From Clostridia bacterium (GTDB taxonomy: Bacteria > Bacillota > Clostridia > Oscillospirales > Acutalibacteraceae), in the NCBI GenBank assembly GCA_017552845.1, contig JAFZOE010000239.1, forward strand, positions 1 to 37,005: a stretch of 37,005 nucleotides of DNA, read 5' to 3'. The notes under the pieces are model-generated. The model did not search any database and had not been told where the DNA came from. It worked only from the letters and a program-made list of their open reading frames with translations. Below, piece after piece: positions 10,589 to 19,400 of the stretch. The translations under genes and the position numbers were made by a program. Position 1 is the first letter of the stretch. Every line of letters begins with the position of its first letter.

Positions 10589-11620
10589 TTACTCGCCTTT
10601 CATTCCGAGCAGCTCAACAGTGCCTTCGAACGAAGCAACGCTGACCTTGATAGAATCGAAAATAGCCGCTTTGATATCATCCTCGGTTGCGCCGAGCATT
10701 TCACTGTCCTTACGGTCTATGAAAAGATTGATATCCATAATCGAGGGAAGAACGAGCGGATTGATGCCGGGATCTATTCCCTTTTCTTTGTATTCCTTGA
10801 TTACCGAGCCCATGCCCATTTTCATTGCCCAGGGAGGAATGCTGATAATCTTTCTGCCCTTCATTCCTCTCGCGTCATAGACGATTGCGAGGAATTCCTT
10901 CCATGTCTGGTTATACATGGCAATCGGGAAGGCTTCATACTTGGGTGCGCTTTCGTCGAGGCAGCGCTCGGTTGCGCCGCAGATGACTTCGCCGACCTGG
11001 CGGCAGGTGAGCATTGCGGTTCCGCCTGCGGGATACATCGTGAACGGGAGCTTATCCATTCTGGCAAGCTGCTCGATGAGGATGGTCCAGACGGGTTTTC
11101 TGCCGGGCTGGGTGCCGAAAATATAGGGGAGCTCGAGCACTTTCGCGCTGAAATTCTCGTCGCAGGCGTCTTCGCAGACCTTTTCCTGATCGAGACGGGC
11201 TCTGAAATAGGGGTTTGCATCCTCAAAATGCTTTTCGGGCATCTGCTTTGCAAGATAGGAGAAATAGGAGCCGAGCACGACTGCGCCCTTGACGCCCGCC
11301 TTCTTGCAGAGCGGGAATATTCTCTCAAGAGGAGCTATGTTGAATTTCTTATATGCATCATAAACCGGAGCGGGGAATTCCACTCTCTCGTCAACGCCCG
11401 CGGCGAAGATGAAAACATCCTTGCCCTGGAGCATCTCGAGAATTTCGTCATCGGTTTTCTTGTTGATGTCGCCGAATACAAGTTCCATCTCCTCGGGGAT
11501 GGGTGCGCCCTGCGGAAGCGGGGGCAGAGCCGCCGAAGAAACCTTGTGGCCTTTTTTGATGAGCTGAGCGGCCGCCTCGCAGCCGAGCAGACCTGTGCCG
11601 CCGATCATAAATACGTTCAT
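10589..11620 (-). CDS. NAD(P)-dependent epimerase/dehydratase (atypical SDR) family protein
   Basis: N-terminal GGTGLLG Rossmann motif, FAAGVDER, YFRAR, ELPYIFG. Confidence 0.85.
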   Translation of the reverse strand: MNVFMIGGTGLLGCEAAAQLIKKGHKVSSAALPPLPQGAPIPEEMELVFGDINKKTDDEILEMLQGKDVFIFAAGVDERVEFPAPVYDAYKKFNIAPLERIFPLCKKAGVKGAVVLGSYFSYLAKQMPEKHFEDANPYFRARLDQEKVCEDACDENFSAKVLELPYIFGTQPGRKPVWTILIEQLARMDKLPFTMYPAGGTAMLTCRQVGEVICGATERCLDESAPKYEAFPIAMYNQTWKEFLAIVYDARGMKGRKIISIPPWAMKMGMGSVIKEYKEKGIDPGINPLVLPSIMDINLFIDRKDSEMLGATEDDIKAAIFDSIKVSVASFEGTVELLGMKGE

Positions 11621-11780
11621 TAATACTTCCTCCTGATTTTTGATTCTGAAAGCGCGGTTACCGAACCGCCGATTCCATACACAGTAATAATATTACAAAA
11701 ATAATAAATAGTCAAGAATTTTATATAATATATAAAGAGAAATGAATAACCGGGTCTGCCTCAGATGACGCATAAAACGC

Positions 11781-11806
11781 AAAAAACCGGGCGGAAATCC
11801 GCCCGG
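11781..11806 (-). terminator. Intrinsic terminator of the STAS gene
   Basis: CCGGGCGGA-TT-TCCGCCCGG followed by TTTTTT on the minus strand. Confidence 0.75.
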
Positions 11807-11823
11807 CATGATAACCGTAAAAA

Positions 11824-12129
11824 TCAGGTGTTTTCAATATTGAGTATATCCGAGAAACCGGTTACATCAAAGATTTCGCTGACTATCTCGTTGGGGTTGA
11901 GAATTTTGAGCGAGCCGCCCGCCGCCGAGAGTTTCTTCTGCGCACAGAGAATGACTCTGAGACCTGCGGAGGAGATATAATCAAGCTGAGTAAAATCAAG
12001 GGTGAGATCGGTGATGCCGTCAAGATCGGCTTTGAGAGCTTCCTCAAGCTCGGGGGAGGTTAATGTTTCAAGTCTGCCCGAAACGGCATATACGGCCTGA
12101 TTTCCGTTGATTGTTTTATTGATAGTCAT
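11824..12129 (-). CDS. STAS-domain anti-sigma factor antagonist
   Basis: SGRLET, LDFTQLDYISSAGLRVIL, EIFDVTGF. ATG 12129 follows GAGGAG. Confidence 0.92.
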   Translation of the reverse strand: MTINKTINGNQAVYAVSGRLETLTSPELEEALKADLDGITDLTLDFTQLDYISSAGLRVILCAQKKLSAAGGSLKILNPNEIVSEIFDVTGFSDILNIENT

Positions 12130-12335
12130 ATACTCTCTCCTCAAATGAATCTTTGTAATCCGGCGGCATTCAGAATTAAGAATACTTCACGAACATTCAA
12201 TTTATGTTATCATAAAAAATATTTAATATCAATACCTAAAAAGGGCAATTTTTGGCGCGTAATCATTGAAGTTTTCAGATTGATATGATAAAATTAAAGT
12301 CTAAACAACAAATATACCCGATGGGAAGATATAAA

Positions 12336-13481
12336 ATGAAAAAACTCACCAAATCAGACAAGAGAAAACTGATACTTGTCGCGGGGGCGGCGCTGATACT
12401 TGTGCTGTTTATCCTGCTTGTTTCCGCGATAGTCAAAGGCGTGAAATCAAAGAAGGCGGATAAGGATTCGGGCTACAGCTTCTCGACCTCCGCGCTCAAG
12501 GATGTGAAAAACGCCGAGTGCCTCAATGAAGAGATCTGCGTATTCACCGATTCCTCCGGCAGAAAAGGTCTCATGACTCTTGACGGCACAGTCACCGAAA
12601 AGGCGGGGAACTATGAATTCAGGGTTGTCAGCGACGAGTGGCTCAGCTCAAAAATCATCGCGAAGACTCCCGATTCGGAATATCCGCTGATTGTCGATCC
12701 CGAAACGGGGAAAATCGGCAAAAAGCAATATAACAAGCCCGACAACCCCGAAAAAATCGCCTACTGGAACGATGAGGCGGCGGCGCTCTGCTGGTATGGC
12801 GCGGACGGCTACATTGACCGCGTCTCGCCCGCCGAGCTTAAAAGCGGAGTAAAGCTTTACCCGGTCGCTCAGAGCGACGAGCCGGGCGCGAAATACGGCT
12901 ATGTCAACGAGAGTCTGTCTGTCGCAATAGATTTCAGCTATGACAGGGCGGAGCAGTTCAGCGAAGGCCTCGCGGCTGTGAGCCAGAGCGGAAAATTCGG
13001 CTATATCGGCGAAACGGGCAGCGTGGAGATTCCTTTTGAATACGACAGCGCGGGCGAAAAGCCCTATTCCTTCAGAAACGGGCTGGTTCCGGTCACGAAG
13101 GATGCGAAATTCGGAATTCTCGACCGCCGCGGCAGGGAGGCAGTCGGCTTCGATTTTGATAAGATCCTGCAGGGAAAAGACGGCAAGTATATCGCCAACA
13201 AGGGCGGAAAATGGGGAATCCTGACCGTCAATGAGGATACATTCAACGCCGCGAATACAACCACCACACCACAGACGGAATTCGTTGAGAATTACAGAGT
13301 CACAACAAGCGGCAGCACTCTCAATCTGCGCGCAGAGCCGAGCATCCGCGCCGAAAAGCTTGCGGAAATTCCGAACGGAACTCCGATCATGGTCGAATCG
13401 GTTGACGGCGAATGGGCAAAGATAAAATACGGCGCCTATTCGGGATACGTCAGCACAAAATACATAACTCAGATTCAGTAA
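12336..13481 (+). CDS. Membrane-anchored WG-repeat protein with C-terminal bacterial SH3 domain
   Basis: N-terminal TM helix; KYGYVN / FSEGLAAV / GKFGYI / GKWGIL repeats; LNLRAEPS...GEWAKIKY..YSGYVSTKYI SH3b. Start uncertain (12285, 12321 or 12336). Confidence 0.85.
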   Translation: MKKLTKSDKRKLILVAGAALILVLFILLVSAIVKGVKSKKADKDSGYSFSTSALKDVKNAECLNEEICVFTDSSGRKGLMTLDGTVTEKAGNYEFRVVSDEWLSSKIIAKTPDSEYPLIVDPETGKIGKKQYNKPDNPEKIAYWNDEAAALCWYGADGYIDRVSPAELKSGVKLYPVAQSDEPGAKYGYVNESLSVAIDFSYDRAEQFSEGLAAVSQSGKFGYIGETGSVEIPFEYDSAGEKPYSFRNGLVPVTKDAKFGILDRRGREAVGFDFDKILQGKDGKYIANKGGKWGILTVNEDTFNAANTTTTPQTEFVENYRVTTSGSTLNLRAEPSIRAEKLAEIPNGTPIMVESVDGEWAKIKYGAYSGYVSTKYITQIQ

Positions 13482-13500
13482 AATAAAAGAGGAGCCGCTT

Positions 13501-14025
13501 ATGAAACTTTATCTCAAACAGAAAGTGTTTTCCTGGAAAGACAAGAGCAACGTAAAGGACGAACTCGGCAACGATAAATATTTTGTCGAAGGCAAGGTGC
13601 TCTCAATGGGCAAGAAACTTACCGTATTTGACGCGGAGCAGAATGAGGTCGCCTTTATCAGACAGAAGGTCGTTACCTTCATGCCGAAGTTTTTCGTGGA
13701 GATCGGCGGCGAGCAGGTTGCCGAAATCTCAAAGAAATTCAGCCTTCTCAAGCCCAAATACGTCGTGAACGGCCCGGGCTGGGAAATAATGGGCAATTTC
13801 ACCGCGCACGATTATTCGATTCGCGACGGCGAAAAGGAAATTGCCGGCATCCACAAGAAATGGATGAGCTGGGGCGACGCTTTTGAAATCGACATCGCGA
13901 GCGAAAAGGACGAGATTATCGTTCTCGGCGTAGTCCTTGCAATCGACGCCGTTATGGATTCTTCCGAAAACGCGGCGGCGGGCGGCCTGGCCGGCGGCGC
14001 AATCTCCTTCGGCTCAAACGACTGA
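13501..14025 (+). CDS. LURP-one-related / Tubby C2-like (YxjI-like) protein
   Basis: MKLYLKQKVFSWKDK, GNFTAHDYSI, KKWMSWGDAFEI, VLAIDA; AGGAG RBS. Confidence 0.88.
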   Translation: MKLYLKQKVFSWKDKSNVKDELGNDKYFVEGKVLSMGKKLTVFDAEQNEVAFIRQKVVTFMPKFFVEIGGEQVAEISKKFSLLKPKYVVNGPGWEIMGNFTAHDYSIRDGEKEIAGIHKKWMSWGDAFEIDIASEKDEIIVLGVVLAIDAVMDSSENAAAGGLAGGAISFGSND

Positions 14026-14042
14026 TAAACAGGAAAAACACA

Positions 14043-14070
14043 AGAGAGGGAAGCGATTCCCTCTCTTTTT
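14043..14070 (+). terminator. Intrinsic terminator, possibly bidirectional
   Basis: AGAGAGGGAA-GCGA-TTCCCTCTCT-TTTT. Confidence 0.8.
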
Positions 14071-14118
14071 AAATTTGCAAGCCGTTCCGTTATTATTCCA
14101 AATTAGAATAATAATGGA

Positions 14119-14220
14119 CGATAAAAGACGGAGAACATAACATTCTCCGTCTTTTATCGGATGGCTCTGTAATTGTTGCTCACAAATTGCAGATGCATAA
14201 TATTAGCTGGATACTATGCA
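14119..14220 (-). ncRNA. Candidate small non-coding RNA (~100 nt; ~185 nt if it reads on to 14035)
   Basis: Perfect sigma-A promoter directly upstream, tandem hairpins, a terminator-like 17-bp perfect IR at 14119-14159, and no RBS-led ORF. Confidence 0.6.
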
Positions 14221-14225
14221 CCTAT

Positions 14226-14274
14226 ATTATAGCTGCGGGTATGGGGTTTGTCAAGCGTTTTTTGAAAAATTTTT
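14226..14274 (-). promoter_or_regulatory. Consensus sigma-A promoter with A-tract UP element
   Basis: TTGACA (14254-14249), 17 nt, TATAAT (14231-14226), preceded by AAAAATTTTTCAAAAAA. Confidence 0.85.
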
Positions 14275-14301
14275 CCGAAAAAAGAGCTCAGAACGCTTGA
14301 T

Positions 14302-14317
14302 ACACAATATATTGTGG
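14302..14317. promoter_or_regulatory. NrdR-box-like palindrome
   Basis: ACACAATATATTGTGG matches the NrdR consensus acaCwAtATaTwGtg; single copy only. Confidence 0.5.
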
Positions 14318-14334
14318 TTGTTACACCCTGAGTA

Positions 14335-14363
14335 TTGAATTTATGCTGTTTCGGTGTTATAAT
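14335..14363 (+). promoter_or_regulatory. Sigma-A promoter of the GH16 gene
   Basis: TTGAAT-17-TATAAT with extended TG; GGAGGG RBS before ATG 14396. Confidence 0.7.
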
Positions 14364-14395
14364 TTTTTTGAAAAATATAACCTCGGAGGGATAAT

Positions 14396-15310
14396 ATGCT
14401 CGAAAATCTTATGAATTCGCTGAATTTTGCGTTCAGGCAGCAGGATGCCGTTCTGCGTATCGGCAGATTCGCTTCCGCTCTATTTGAAGGAGGCTTTTCT
14501 TTCAAGAAACTCGCGGCCGTATTCATCGCATTTATCGAAATGTTCGGATGCGTGATCTCCGATTATCCGGTGACGCCGCTCGGCGAAGAGCTTTCGCTCG
14601 ACGGCTATTCAATAGTCTTTGAGGATGAATTTAACGGCGACGCGCTCAATCTCGATGTCTGGGAATCGCGCTATGAGGGCGGCGGGAACGGCCGCTTCGA
14701 GACCGTCGATCAGGCGAAGGTCGAGGGCGGAAACCTGATAATGACCGGCGAATACAAGTCGGACGGCAGATACGGAGAGGGTTGGTATTCCTGTGATCTT
14801 CAGCTGAAATAGACCTACTGCAAGGGATATTTTGAAATAAAATGCAAATGCAGCGATACTGCCGATTTCTGGAGCGCCTTCTGGATTCAGGCGGAGCACC
14901 CCTACGATCACGATATATCGAAGGGCGGCCCTGGCGGCGCGGAACTTGATATATTTGAATCCTGCGATTCGGGCTCAACGAGCACCCTGCGCAGAAACGC
15001 GGTTGTCCAGACCGTCCACTGCAACGGATACGACGACAATCCCGACAAGCTCGATTCGCGTATTCTCGGCAAATTCAGGGCCGGCGATATCTATAATGAA
15101 TACACAACCTTCGGCCTCAAATGGACCGAGGATGAATATATATTTTATATCAACGGCGTGGAATCCGCGCGCTCAAGCTTCGGCAACGGTGTCTCCGAAG
15201 AGGAGGAATATGTCTGCGTTTCGCTCTGCATGCCCGCCGAAATCACGCTCGACCACGGCACAAAGGCCGTATTTACGGTCGATTATGTAAAAATCTGGCA
15301 GAAGCAGTGA
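14396..15310 (+). pseudogene. Glycoside hydrolase family 16 gene with a single in-frame TAG at 14810-14812 (nonsense allele, read-through or sequencing error)
   Basis: The frame continues past TAG as TYCKGYFEIKC..FWSAFW..GAELDIFES..YTTFGLKWTEDEYIFYING..VDYVKIWQKQ to TGA 15310. This gives 304 codons, collinear with the 305-aa GH16 at 35684-36601. Confidence 0.85.
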
Positions 15311-15320
15311 GTCATATATT

Positions 15321-15348
15321 GAGATCCTTCACTTTGCTCAGGATGACA
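15321..15348. repeat. REP-like palindromic unit (GTCATCCTGAGC..GAAGGATCTC type)
   Basis: The reverse complement reads TGTCATCCTGAGCAAAGTGAAGGATCTC, resembling a widespread extragenic repeat type; single copy here. Confidence 0.45.
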
Positions 15349-15360
15349 CACAGATAAAAG

Positions 15361-15386
15361 AAAGGCACGGAGACATCCGTGCCTTT
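15361..15386. terminator. Bidirectional terminator between convergent genes
   Basis: AAAGGCACGGA-GACA-TCCGTGCCTTT. Confidence 0.8.
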
Positions 15387-15400
15387 ATGTTTTCAGATGT

Positions 15401-16258
15401 TTATGCCGCTGTTTTGGAGACGGGCTCGGGGATTTCGGCGGTGGTCGAGAATTCAATCGTATCGATTCTCGCGATGAATCCGCCGGCATCCGGCTTCATT
15501 ATGTTATAGCCGATGAACATCGCTCCGCCGAAGAAGAAAATGTTTTCCGCTTCGTTTACCGTATCGGGCAGGACTGCGTAGCCCTGCGGATTGCCCTGCA
15601 GATCGTATTTATAGACGATATTCGGATTGTAGAAGAGCGAATAGAGGTATTCGCCGTCCGAGCCGAGGCTCTGGCGCGTGAATTTATTCTCGGGATTGTC
15701 AATCACGCCGAGCGCGTTGAAATCCTCATCATAACGGACAATATCGCATGAATTCGAGATGCCCGCATACCAGCATTTGCCCGTGCCGACATAGGCGATT
15801 GAATAAATCTTGCGGTCGAGTGTTTTCGTGCCCTTGATTTCAAGCTTGACGGGATCGACAAAGGTGATGGTTGTATAATTCGGCTTGTTGTTGCTGATGA
15901 CGAGCAGCTTGTTTTCCTCGTCATAGGTCATGTCGTTCGCGTGGTCGATTCTGAGCTCATCGCTCGCCTCGACGACCTGCCATTTTTCCGGATTGATTTT
16001 GATAATCCTGCAGGGGACCTCTGTCTCTTCCGCGTCGGGATTTATCATAATCTGATAGATGTAAGTTCCGTCGGTGCAGCCGCCCTCGACCGTTCTTATC
16101 TGCTCGAAGGGCTCGAACGCGATGACCGTCGTCTGCGTTACCTTGGGAACCTCGGGCGGTTTCTCGGGAGACATGATTCCGAGAGCCGTGAGAATCGCCG
16201 TGAAAATCGCGGCAAAACTCTTAAAGAAGCCGATAATGGCTTCAAAGAAGCTTTCCAT
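15401..16258 (-). CDS. Hypothetical exported protein, probable beta-propeller
   Basis: Hydrophobic N-terminus, Pro-rich linker, then EGGCTDGTYIY, DHANDMTYD, QSLGSDGEYLY, EAENI blade-like repeats. Start is probably ATG 16258. Confidence 0.7.
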   Translation of the reverse strand: MESFFEAIIGFFKSFAAIFTAILTALGIMSPEKPPEVPKVTQTTVIAFEPFEQIRTVEGGCTDGTYIYQIMINPDAEETEVPCRIIKINPEKWQVVEASDELRIDHANDMTYDEENKLLVISNNKPNYTTITFVDPVKLEIKGTKTLDRKIYSIAYVGTGKCWYAGISNSCDIVRYDEDFNALGVIDNPENKFTRQSLGSDGEYLYSLFYNPNIVYKYDLQGNPQGYAVLPDTVNEAENIFFFGGAMFIGYNIMKPDAGGFIARIDTIEFSTTAEIPEPVSKTAA

Positions 16259-16387
16259 AAATATTTTCCCCGTTTCATAGATTGCGGTGCGCATTTCGGG
16301 CTGTTCCGCGGCCCGCGCACAAATCAAGCGGTATTATATACCTTTAATATGAGAATGTCATTAACAAATTGTAAATTTCACAAAAGA

Positions 16388-16411
16388 GCCCTCCCCGGAA
16401 ACGGAGAGGGC
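16388..16411 (-). terminator. Terminator after the ABC transporter gene
   Basis: GCCCTCCCCG-GAAA-CGGAGAGGGC hairpin with a T-tract on the minus strand. Confidence 0.7.
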
Positions 16412-16430
16412 GGTGTGTTTTTTTTGCTCT

Positions 16431-19400
16431 TTACTCTGTCCTGAGCGCCACGACAGGATCTTTCTTTGAGGCGATTCGGGCGGGGATGAGGCCTGCGACG
16501 AAGGTCAGGAACATACTGATAATTATGAGTATAATCGCGCCGTTCATCGGTAGCTGCGCCACATGGGGCAGGGTTGTAAGATACTTGATTACGATATTTA
16601 TCGGGATAATCAGCAGGAGCGTTACCCCTATGCCGATGGCTCCCGAAACGAAGCCGACGGTCAGCGTCTCGGCGTTGAATACGCGGGAAACATCCCTCTT
16701 GCTCGCGCCGATTGCTCGCAGAATGCCGATTTCCTTGGTTCTCTCAAGAACGGAAATATAGGTGATGATGCCGATCATAATTGAGGAAACGACAAGCGAA
16801 ATTGCGACAAATGCGATAAGAACATAGGAAATGATATTGACTATCTTTGTGACCGATTTGAGCATGATGCCGATGAAATCGGTGTATTTAATCGATTTTT
16901 CCTCGCCCCTGGATTCGTTGTATTCCTCGATTATATTTGAAATGATATCCTTTGACTCAAAATCCTTCGGATAAATGTTTATCTGCTTGGGATTGCTGAG
17001 ATCCGCAACGCCGAGAATTTCGAGAGCCTCGTCATAGCTGCCCGCGAGCGGCTCGGGTTCCGGCTCGGGTTCCGGTTCGGGCTCGGCGGGAGTTTCCTGC
17101 GCGTCCTCTTCGCCCTTTTCATCGGGATTGTCCGCTTCCTCGCCGGGTGTTTCATCTTCGGGATTGACGGGCACGCCCATATCGTCATAAGCGCCGGATA
17201 CCATGGCGTTGAGCATCTTGAGCTTGGTTTCCTTATCCATCATCGAGAGATAGGTATAGGCCTGCTCGCCGGAGATTGTGCCGTAGCCGGGAATCTCATA
17301 GCCCGAGAGCATCTCGTTCATATTCGCGATAAGCTCTCTTCTCTCGGAAATCGTCAGCACGCTCTTGAGCATGAGCTCGACGGTGCGCTTCATCTTCGCG
17401 GCTTCCTCGCCGCTGTATTTCTGATCTATCTTGGCGTAAATCTCTTCCTCGGTCGCGGAGGGAAGGGACGACATATCGGGCAGCGCGGTCGCCGTGAAGC
17501 TCGCCTGCGGGGCCTCGCCCGAATAAGCGAGAGACGAAACAACGGGCTTCTCAAATGCCGCGGCGGGTTTTGCGGCGGCTGTTGTCTTTTCGGGCTCTGC
17601 CGCTTTCTCATCCGCCTTCTTTTCCTCTTTGGCGTCTGCCTTTTCTTCCTCTTCGGTCTTCGGGAACGGGATGCCGGTGAATACGTCTGTTTCGGGATTC
17701 GCCTTCTGCTGTTTTACTATCTCGGCCTCGTCGGTTTTCTTTGCCGTGTGCTCGACCAGAGAGGGCAGATAGCCGACCGTTCCCATCGTGGCGACGGCCA
17801 CCGAATCCTCGGCGGGTCTGATAATGCCGACAATCGTGATATCCTCGCCGCCGGCGATTGTTTTCTTGACGAATTCCTCGTCGCCGCTCATATCGACCCA
17901 TTCCTTGTTTTCTTCATCATATTCAAAGAATTCGGGAGCGGTGACAAGCTTGAATTTTCTGCCGATAATTTCGCTGTAATCGAGGGCAAAAGACTTGGTT
18001 TCGACCTCCTCGCCCTTCATGATTGCCATCATCATATTCATAATGTCGGTCGAGCTCATGAGGCCGAGACCCTGAATGGTCAGGTCGCTTATCTCGTTAT
18101 TCTTATCGATGATAAGCACGGTTTCGTTATATTTCTCGGGCCATTTGCCGTCGATTAAATCATATTGATTCTTGAGGAGCTCCTGATTGTCGATAAGCTC
18201 CTGCCAGGAATTGTAGTATTTGGAATAGCTCTCCATAGTGGAGGTGTCAATACCCATCGCGCCGAGATTGATTCCGCCCATCATTGAGGTCATCATTTCG
18301 AGAACGGGGCTCGGATAAACCTGATTTGCGCCGTCTCCGGTGCCCTCGGCGTAGATATTCATCTTGCCGCCGTATTGATACTGAATCGAGGAGACATACT
18401 GCTTTATTTCATCATTTGAATCGAGGAATTTCTTGAATTCCTTCAGATCATTGAACCACACGCCCGAGGAATAGGACTGAAGCATATTCTGCGACATCGC
18501 GTTTGAATAGACCTTGTCGAGCTCATGGTCCGCATTGGCGGTGCCGAAATTCGAGAGAGCGCCGAGCATTGAATTCATATCCATCGTCGCCGCGTCAACG
18601 GTCATCGGGTAGGAGGTCAGCGTCTCCTGCTGAATTGAATCTATATATGCCTGGAAGCCGCTCGAGAGCGAGAGAATCAGGGCGATGCCGATGATTCCTA
18701 TACTGCCCGCAAACGAGGTCAGGAAGGTCCTCATCTTTTTGGTGAGAAGGTTGTTGAGCGAGAGGGAGAGAGCCGTGAAGAAGGACATTGACGGCTTTTT
18801 TTCTTTTTTATCAGCGCTCTTTCCGGCGTAATCGGACATTTCCTCTTCGTCGCTGTAGGGAGCGGAATCGTCAATCACCTTGCCGTCGAGCAGGCGGATG
18901 ATTCTGGTCGAATACTCCTGGGCGAGCTCGGGGTTGTGGGTAACCATGACAACGAGGCGGTCCCTGCTTATCTCGCGCAGGATATCCATGACCTGAACGC
19001 TCGTCTCGCTGTCGAGAGCGCCGGTCGGCTCATCCGCGAGCAGAATTTCGGGATCATTCACAAGAGCTCTGGCTATTGCGACTCGCTGCATCTGGCCGCC
19101 CGATAGCTGATTCGGCTTTTTATTGAGCTGGTCTGAGAGGCCGACTCTGTCGAGCGCTTCCTTTGCCCTCTTTTTTCTCTCGGTCTTTGAGACGCCCGAG
19201 AGAGTCAGCGCGAGCTCGACATTCGCGAGCACGGTCTGATGGGGGATCAGGTTATAGCTCTGAAAAACGAAACCGACGCGGTGATTTCTGTAGTTATCCC
19301 AGTCGGAATCCTTGAAATCCTTGGTCGATTTGCCCTCGATGACGAGGTCGCCGTCGGTATACTGATCAAGGCCGCCGATGATATTCAGCAGCGTGGTTTT

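Follow-up and report, generated by a model that had tools for sequence, protein, structure and literature searches.

A predicted small-RNA family limited to one uncultured genus of gut Clostridia

The DNA analysed here, a 37,005-nt stretch from a Clostridia bacterium henceforth referred to as the window, contains a strong promoter on the minus strand that leads into a structured region rather than into a gene. The question raised by this locus is whether a small RNA is made from it and, if so, how such an RNA would act in the cell.

Promoter and predicted transcript in the window

The locus is placed between a convergent LURP-one-related (LOR) gene (13501–14025) and a divergent GH16 glycoside hydrolase gene (from 14396). 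A preliminary description of this DNA had reported an orphan promoter, consisting of an A-tract and TTGACA-17-TATAAT on the minus strand, followed by a protein-free structured RNA taken as a candidate novel ncRNA. The promoter is present as described, and its 12/12 match is unique among the 19 promoter-like sites in 11000–17000. Hairpins 1, 2 and 4, the 17-bp inverted repeat (hairpin 3) and the terminator of that description were likewise all located, with hairpin 1 spanning 14220–14194 on the minus strand and the terminator, given as 14043–14070, called as a stem at 14042–14067. The minus strand was also said to be free of genes for ~2 kb downstream, which agrees with the nearest gene call at 11824–12129, about 2 kb off. 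Transcription is predicted to start at G14219 and to end in or shortly after the U-tract 14126–14120. The coordinates of the individual features are provided in Table 1.

Table 1 Features of the small-RNA locus and its neighbours in the window.
Feature	Coordinates	Strand	Basis
A/T-tract (UP-element-like) upstream of -35 box	14255..14280	-	sequence
Sigma-A-type promoter TTGACA-17-TATAAT	14226..14254	-	12/12 match; TTGACA(14254), TATAAT(14226)
Predicted small RNA, ~95-100 nt	14120..14219	-	covariance-model match and homolog lengths
P1, 5' hairpin	14195..14219	-	variable sequence, kept structure
P2, weak middle hairpin with GAGCAACAA at 14181-14173	14166..14193	-	sequence-conserved
Single-stranded linker AGCCAUCC(G)	14158..14166	-	conserved across loci
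P3, perfect 17-bp hairpin then UUUUAUC, predicted intrinsic terminator	14119..14159	-	compensatory changes
Hairpin 4, lineage-specific, outside conserved RNA	14086..14118	.	local to few loci
Bidirectional terminator stem, outside conserved RNA	14042..14067	.	called on both strands
LOR gene, convergent with small RNA	13501..14025	+	Pfam PF04525
WG-repeat/SH3b protein gene, beyond LOR gene	12285..13481	+	Pfam PF14903, PF08239; ortholog match

The GH16 gene (14396–15290, plus strand) contains a single in-frame TAG at 14810–14812. In the close relative L105 the gene is intact (302 aa) and has a lysine codon at the TAG position, so the TAG reflects either a nonsense change specific to this strain or an error in the assembly.

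Both a 188-nt and a 105-nt minus-strand form folded with high stability compared to shuffled sequences (z -8.6 and -8.1, respectively, with 0/200 shuffles as good in either case). The plus strand of the same 188 nt was as stable as the minus strand (z -9.8), so folding by itself cannot assign the strand. The minus strand was fixed as the RNA strand from the alignment of P3, which on that strand contains 23 G-U cells versus 4 unpaired cells, because these G-U pairs would read as A-C mismatches on the plus strand. This answers, in favour of the minus strand, the earlier caveat that some G-U pairs favour the plus strand.

The window was also screened for known RNA classes. Nothing in the window reached the Rfam gathering cut-off, a local scan giving sub-threshold hits only, and the element had no family match at gathering score in 15 homologous loci either. 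ARAGORN called 0 tRNA or tmRNA genes in the window, and the SRP RNA (RF00169, RF01854) was found at G000:C27 of this genome (G000) and in 3/4 relatives, away from the small-RNA locus. The earlier description, which recognised no tRNA, tmRNA, SRP or riboswitch motifs, agrees with these searches.

Conservation across the genus

A DNA search of 61 relatives, in which some matches were limited to the A-rich promoter part, matched 32 of 36 same-genus genomes. The predicted transcript was aligned from 29 of the 30 returned loci, one being cut by a contig end, and the alignment was converted into a covariance model. The model matches the window at 14112–14215 (92 bits, the sole locus in the genome) and detects exactly one locus in 103 of the 132 genomes of the genus, which was placed in Acutalibacteraceae from record titles; the second matches listed were the opposite strand of the same hairpin. 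Among high-quality genus genomes, 43/59 had a match and 16/59 had none, so the small RNA appears dispensable in some lineages. Ten of the high-quality negative genomes were searched, and five keep a full-length ortholog of the WG-repeat/SH3b (WG/SH3) gene. Neither the small RNA nor a diverged copy was present behind that ortholog in the five genomes read, and a deeper model search of five negative genomes gave only one 27-bit terminator. In G348 and G003, the sequence after the WG/SH3 stop resembles a mobile-element end. An identical, inserted-looking sequence occupies the usual place of the small RNA in both (L212 and L220), and the frame after the insert in L212 may resemble the C-terminus of a serine recombinase; the spot behind the WG/SH3 stop is a possible site of integration.

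Scanning the GTDB collection with a sequence pattern yielded 114 hits, of which 19 were non-matching and 95 scored at least 76 bits. The latter are labelled Acutalibacteraceae, Clostridia, Ruminococcaceae or Oscillospiraceae bacterium, or similar, and were for the most part sampled in herbivore guts. When the model was run on 150 genomes of the order and 150 of the family, no score outside the genus exceeded 42 bits, and 26 order and 25 family hits, among the matches listed, were terminator-like hairpins that lacked the core. In its exact form, the core pattern occurred in 0/400 other genomes of the class and in 0 viral contigs; these out-of-genus searches would overlook a more diverged form. 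Other families of the order contain a multi-copy intergenic element (L042, L063, L068, L044, L046, L066 and L096), in which TTGACAAGCACTGCATTTGTG comes after a similar terminator hairpin. This element has CTGCATTTGTG in common with P2, though arranged differently, and is possibly a repeat element.

The anatomy of the element was compared over 85 distinct loci, drawn from 130 examined including duplicates, by a regular expression that skipped the most divergent type, e.g. L030. Homolog lengths ranged from 75 to 109 nt with a median of 94 (84 loci). In 79 of the 85 loci the promoter kept TTGAC and, across a 17-bp spacer, TAnnnT; five of the others fit a 16-bp spacer and one has TTTAAT. A run of at least four A within 14 nt 5' of the -35 box was present in 75/85. 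Identity was 0.39 in the promoter spacer versus 0.88 in the RNA core. The predicted first nucleotide was G in 47/84 loci.

The three hairpins are conserved in different ways. P1 showed double changes at 6/6 pairs in the larger, model-fitted alignment, and a hairpin of -2 kcal/mol or better was formed in 77/85 loci, being weak or missing in 8/85. P3 was paired in 99.4% of cells with 11/17 pairs doubly changed in a sequence-only MAFFT alignment, and in 99.7% of cells with 8/17 pairs doubly changed and 8/17 invariant in the model-fitted alignment. Compensatory changes in P1 and P3 exceeded those of all 500 shuffles and of all slid controls. P2 is weak by itself (-5.1 kcal/mol, z -0.8) and showed double changes at just 2/10 pairs in the model-fitted alignment; its pairing register differs between lineages, with a loop of GAGCA or a shifted form. 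The motif GAGCAACAA was unaltered in 82/84 loci (variants GAGCAAAAA and GAGCGACAA) and the linker AGCCATCCG was present in 83/84, counts that lean high because the GAGC and CCATYC cores belonged to the search pattern and regular expression. A divergent linker form, AACCATCC, was observed in L030, L235 and L236. Alternative pairing of the loop with P3 was considered and rejected as not conserved.

Public sequencing runs were inspected for expression. Among 24 runs listed, four labelled as RNA, from two studies, contained a small share; one of them was only guessed to be RNA. Three of these four contained contigs of 151–245 nt at a depth of 2–3.5 over 14086–14274, which extend into the promoter, so DNA or read-through may be their source; the fourth covers the LOR gene only. 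The promoter, the covariation and the single-copy distribution very probably reflect a real, transcribed small RNA.

Mode of action and rival explanations

Classical base-pairing small RNAs have their own promoter and terminator and occupy conserved intergenic regions, as set out in PMC9438474. Sequence comparison finds the same here: an own promoter, an intrinsic terminator and no conserved ORF. Like the trans-encoded small RNAs of PMC9438474, the element is about 100 nt, has a Rho-independent terminator and retains conserved unpaired segments. It differs from them in having no Rfam match and no target found, and in that Hfq was detected in 0/5 genomes tested. Base pairing with mRNAs is preferred as the mechanism because of this anatomy and the usual behaviour of such RNAs as the paper presents it, with a probability of roughly 0.45.

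In the proposed mechanism, sigma-A RNA polymerase would start at G14219, P1 would shield the 5' end from exonucleases, and P3 would terminate transcription and protect the 3' end. The weak P2 would open so that its loop, its 3' strand and the linker act as a seed, and the small RNA would pair in trans with mRNAs via the near-invariant exposed motifs GAGCAACAA and AGCCAUCC. Since Hfq was not found in the tested genomes, such pairing would be Hfq-independent. A weak, sequence-conserved P2 with a shifting register fits recognition of sequence, and the combination of a protective 5' hairpin, a weak conserved middle and a terminator fits a trans-acting regulator recognised by sequence.

Targets were searched for in several ways. 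A duplex scan of 1601 start regions of this genome gave best scores within the shuffled ranges. Comparison with 1.75 Mb of G020 over 921 ortholog pairs gave 37 shared sites versus 18–61 for shuffles, and a whole-mRNA test gave 7 versus 0–12. These scans are of limited sensitivity: they used a genome that is 77% complete and gene calls from a custom script, considered ungapped helices only in the two-genome comparisons, and ignored accessibility. When intergenic complement sites were inspected, no partner common to them emerged.

A glnA leader gave the best loop hit of this genome, at about 14 complementary bases, but was rejected as a target since the site is not conserved among 26 leaders. 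The GTTGCTC site is exact in three of them (G000, G413 and G418), and partial in two (G412 and G009), while genomes that do carry the small RNA, e.g. G339, G029, G349 and G018, lack it; the glnA of that leader was detected by DNA search in just 27/132 genus genomes. The leader itself (L253:1190-1275, G000:C85) precedes an operon of glnA, an ANTAR response regulator, glutamate dehydrogenase and guaA. It comprises a AACAAAGGCGUU hairpin and then a terminator, has no Rfam match, and keeps the first hairpin in 15 of the 26 leaders examined; from its sequence, this conserved leader looks like an ANTAR antitermination site. A second glnA has near-identical upstream sequence in seven otherwise diverged genus genomes (L273–L279) and a more distant form in L280, which suggests recent transfer.

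Further regulatory classes were compared with the small RNA itself. Type I antitoxins are accompanied by an overlapping or adjacent antisense small toxin gene. No conserved toxin-type neighbour ORF was found in scans with 70–80 aa minima, and by inspection the antisense AUG in the window stops after three codons. ANTAR target RNAs have two hairpins with six-base loops whose first base is A and whose fourth is G, according to PMC3369931; this class was rejected, such a loop occurring in P1 of 1/85 loci only.

In the main, if somewhat doubtful, rival to base pairing, the small RNA would act in trans on an RNA-binding protein, as its decoy or scaffold, and the protein would read the P2 loop, the linker and perhaps a constant face of P3. 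Near-invariant single-stranded motifs, the eight P3 pairs that never vary, a consensus-strength promoter with a mostly G start, and the lack of a conserved complementary mRNA in the scans all speak for it. The invariant P3 pairs exceed the needs of a terminator, and protein binding there could be the reason. CsrB/Rsm-type RNAs sequester protein through repeated exposed GGA motifs, and they resemble the small RNA in being multi-hairpin RNAs with conserved exposed motifs. The small RNA differs in having no repeated GGA loops, and CsrA was found in 0/5 genomes searched; a sponge of this kind was rejected, the sole GGA lying in P3, where it is paired and variable. Also against a decoy, P2 loop size and register vary among lineages, contrary to a fixed shape, and no candidate partner gene travels with the small RNA. 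The more specific proposal that an abundant, near-housekeeping RNA titrates or scaffolds an undescribed RNA-binding protein via GAGCAACAA, AGCCAUCC and the constant terminator face is considered unlikely.

The gene neighbourhood bears on a third reading, in which the element would act in cis, either as a leader or attenuator for metallophosphoesterase–sanA genes or by forming the 3' end of the WG/SH3 mRNA and regulating there. The WG/SH3 gene, whose product looks membrane-anchored in the window (12285–13481), is nearly restricted to the genus; in 150 genomes of the family, other genera gave three matches, all weak and partial. It is the upstream same-strand neighbour in 68 of the 84 loci having an upstream ORF, and in most loci 42–109 nt separate its stop codon from the predicted +1 that follows. 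Downstream, 85 loci comprised 41 with a close same-strand gene, 36 convergent, 7 with a distant same-strand gene and 1 with none. The 41 close genes begin at most 80 nt from P3, often at 12–25 nt, where read-through is likely, and include 27 metallophosphoesterases and 11 DUF218/SanA proteins.

This arrangement would suit a cis element, but in a quick maximum-likelihood tree built from 67 WG/SH3 proteins a single clade contains 30 of the 33 same-strand-close rows, and the element is fully conserved before convergent genes in loci spread over several deep branches. It is also kept, promoter included, without a WG/SH3 gene upstream in 16/84 loci. The window is one of these: here the small RNA and the WG/SH3 gene lie apart and on opposite strands, with the promoter and core of the RNA intact. 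Inspecting the alignment revealed no conserved antiterminator, and Rfam gave no riboswitch or leader match. A cis-regulatory leader was rejected on the convergent loci and the mostly one-clade metallophosphoesterase/sanA context, and a cis role as a whole is quite improbable. Downstream genes vary and are convergent in 36/85 loci, which argues for a stand-alone RNA. From these comparisons, the small RNA is predicted to be its own transcription unit, independent of flanking genes.

Behind the WG/SH3 gene, P3 would also terminate the WG/SH3 mRNA. DapZ, MicL and Lactococcus ArgX, covered in PMC9438474, are small RNAs that lie at the 3' end of the gene upstream yet have a promoter of their own. 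As in the cases given there, the small RNA mostly follows a gene with which it would share a terminator; unlike them, its promoter mostly lies past the stop codon, and the unit survives detachment and inversion.

It is highly improbable that the element is a short peptide gene or acts at the DNA level, as an inverted repeat of operator type next to a terminator. The P2 inverted repeat fits TGTNA-N7-TNACA, the GlnR/TnrA box, in this strain and in some homologs resembles the lac operator, but the TNACA half is broken in most homologs and the G-U wobbles favour one strand, as RNA would. An AUG in the P2 3' strand opens at least 15 codons in 64/85 loci, but it is absent in 15/85 including this window and closed early in 6, and four-fold degenerate positions scarcely vary. 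Sense and antisense peptides and the GlnR-box and lac-operator likenesses were all rejected as not conserved.

The preliminary description had further proposed an RNA of either ~100 or ~185 nt, possibly in two conformations, with the longer form compatible with a divergent 6S-like RNA. The shorter size agrees with the homolog lengths. The longer does not hold up, no conserved sequence being found downstream of P3 across homologs. Because nothing past P3 is conserved, the conserved RNA is taken to be about 95–100 nt. Only 19/84 loci have a further hairpin of at least -8 kcal/mol in stability behind P3, with differing sequences and mostly ahead of a convergent gene. The 14042–14067 terminator lies 17 bp past the LOR stop at 14025, was matched by none of the homologs when 61 relatives were searched with the DNA, and most simply belongs to the convergent WG/SH3-LOR genes. 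The long-range helix AATTTGTGAGC/GCTTGCAAATT does form part of the MFE fold of the 188-nt form, but the two conformations drawn from it fail, the partner strand not being conserved: its best duplex is -10.4 kcal/mol here versus a median of -5.5 over 84 loci, and one unrelated locus reaches -11.5, stronger than that of the window.

6S RNA is about 180–200 nt, has a long stem with a central bubble and is conserved over its length. Like SRP RNA, it resembles the small RNA in being single-copy, strongly promoted, structured and protein-free; both differ from it in size and fold, and the small RNA is limited to one genus. The canonical 6S RNA (RF00013) was found at G000:C12:4238-4452 and in 4/4 relatives, so that in 5/5 genomes, this one included, it sits elsewhere. 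A 6S identity was rejected, the conserved unit of 75–109 nt forming three separate hairpins. A ~185-nt 6S-like or two-state RNA ending at the 14042–14067 terminator is extremely improbable: its 188-nt fold is stable and includes the long-range helix, and the U-tract behind P3 is short, so some read-through is plausible in this strain, but canonical 6S RNA lies elsewhere, the region past P3 is not conserved, and the fold is without the long stem and central bubble typical of 6S RNA.

Novelty and significance

A literature search returned no paper with GAGCAACAAUG, and a search for Acutalibacteraceae with small RNA found no paper, and none on this RNA. The motif was absent from the searchable supplements of PMC8040213; two large files outside that search may bear on novelty. 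Judged by its sequence conservation, this single-copy small-RNA gene is most readily described as a new family of a known general kind, apparently limited to one uncultured gut Clostridia genus.

The reach of the finding is limited to one genus and to a predicted function. Within it, the family is well supported and could be turned into an Rfam-style model at once, and the uncultured lineage that carries it is abundant in the herbivore gut. The window contributes an arrangement in which the small RNA is both detached and inverted, along with target tests that came out negative. If true, the protein-titration reading would represent a new RNA–protein regulatory pair. The small RNA is kept once per genome over about 100 species despite Hfq and CsrA not being found, and naming its partner could reveal RNA-based gene regulation in bacteria without detected Hfq or CsrA.
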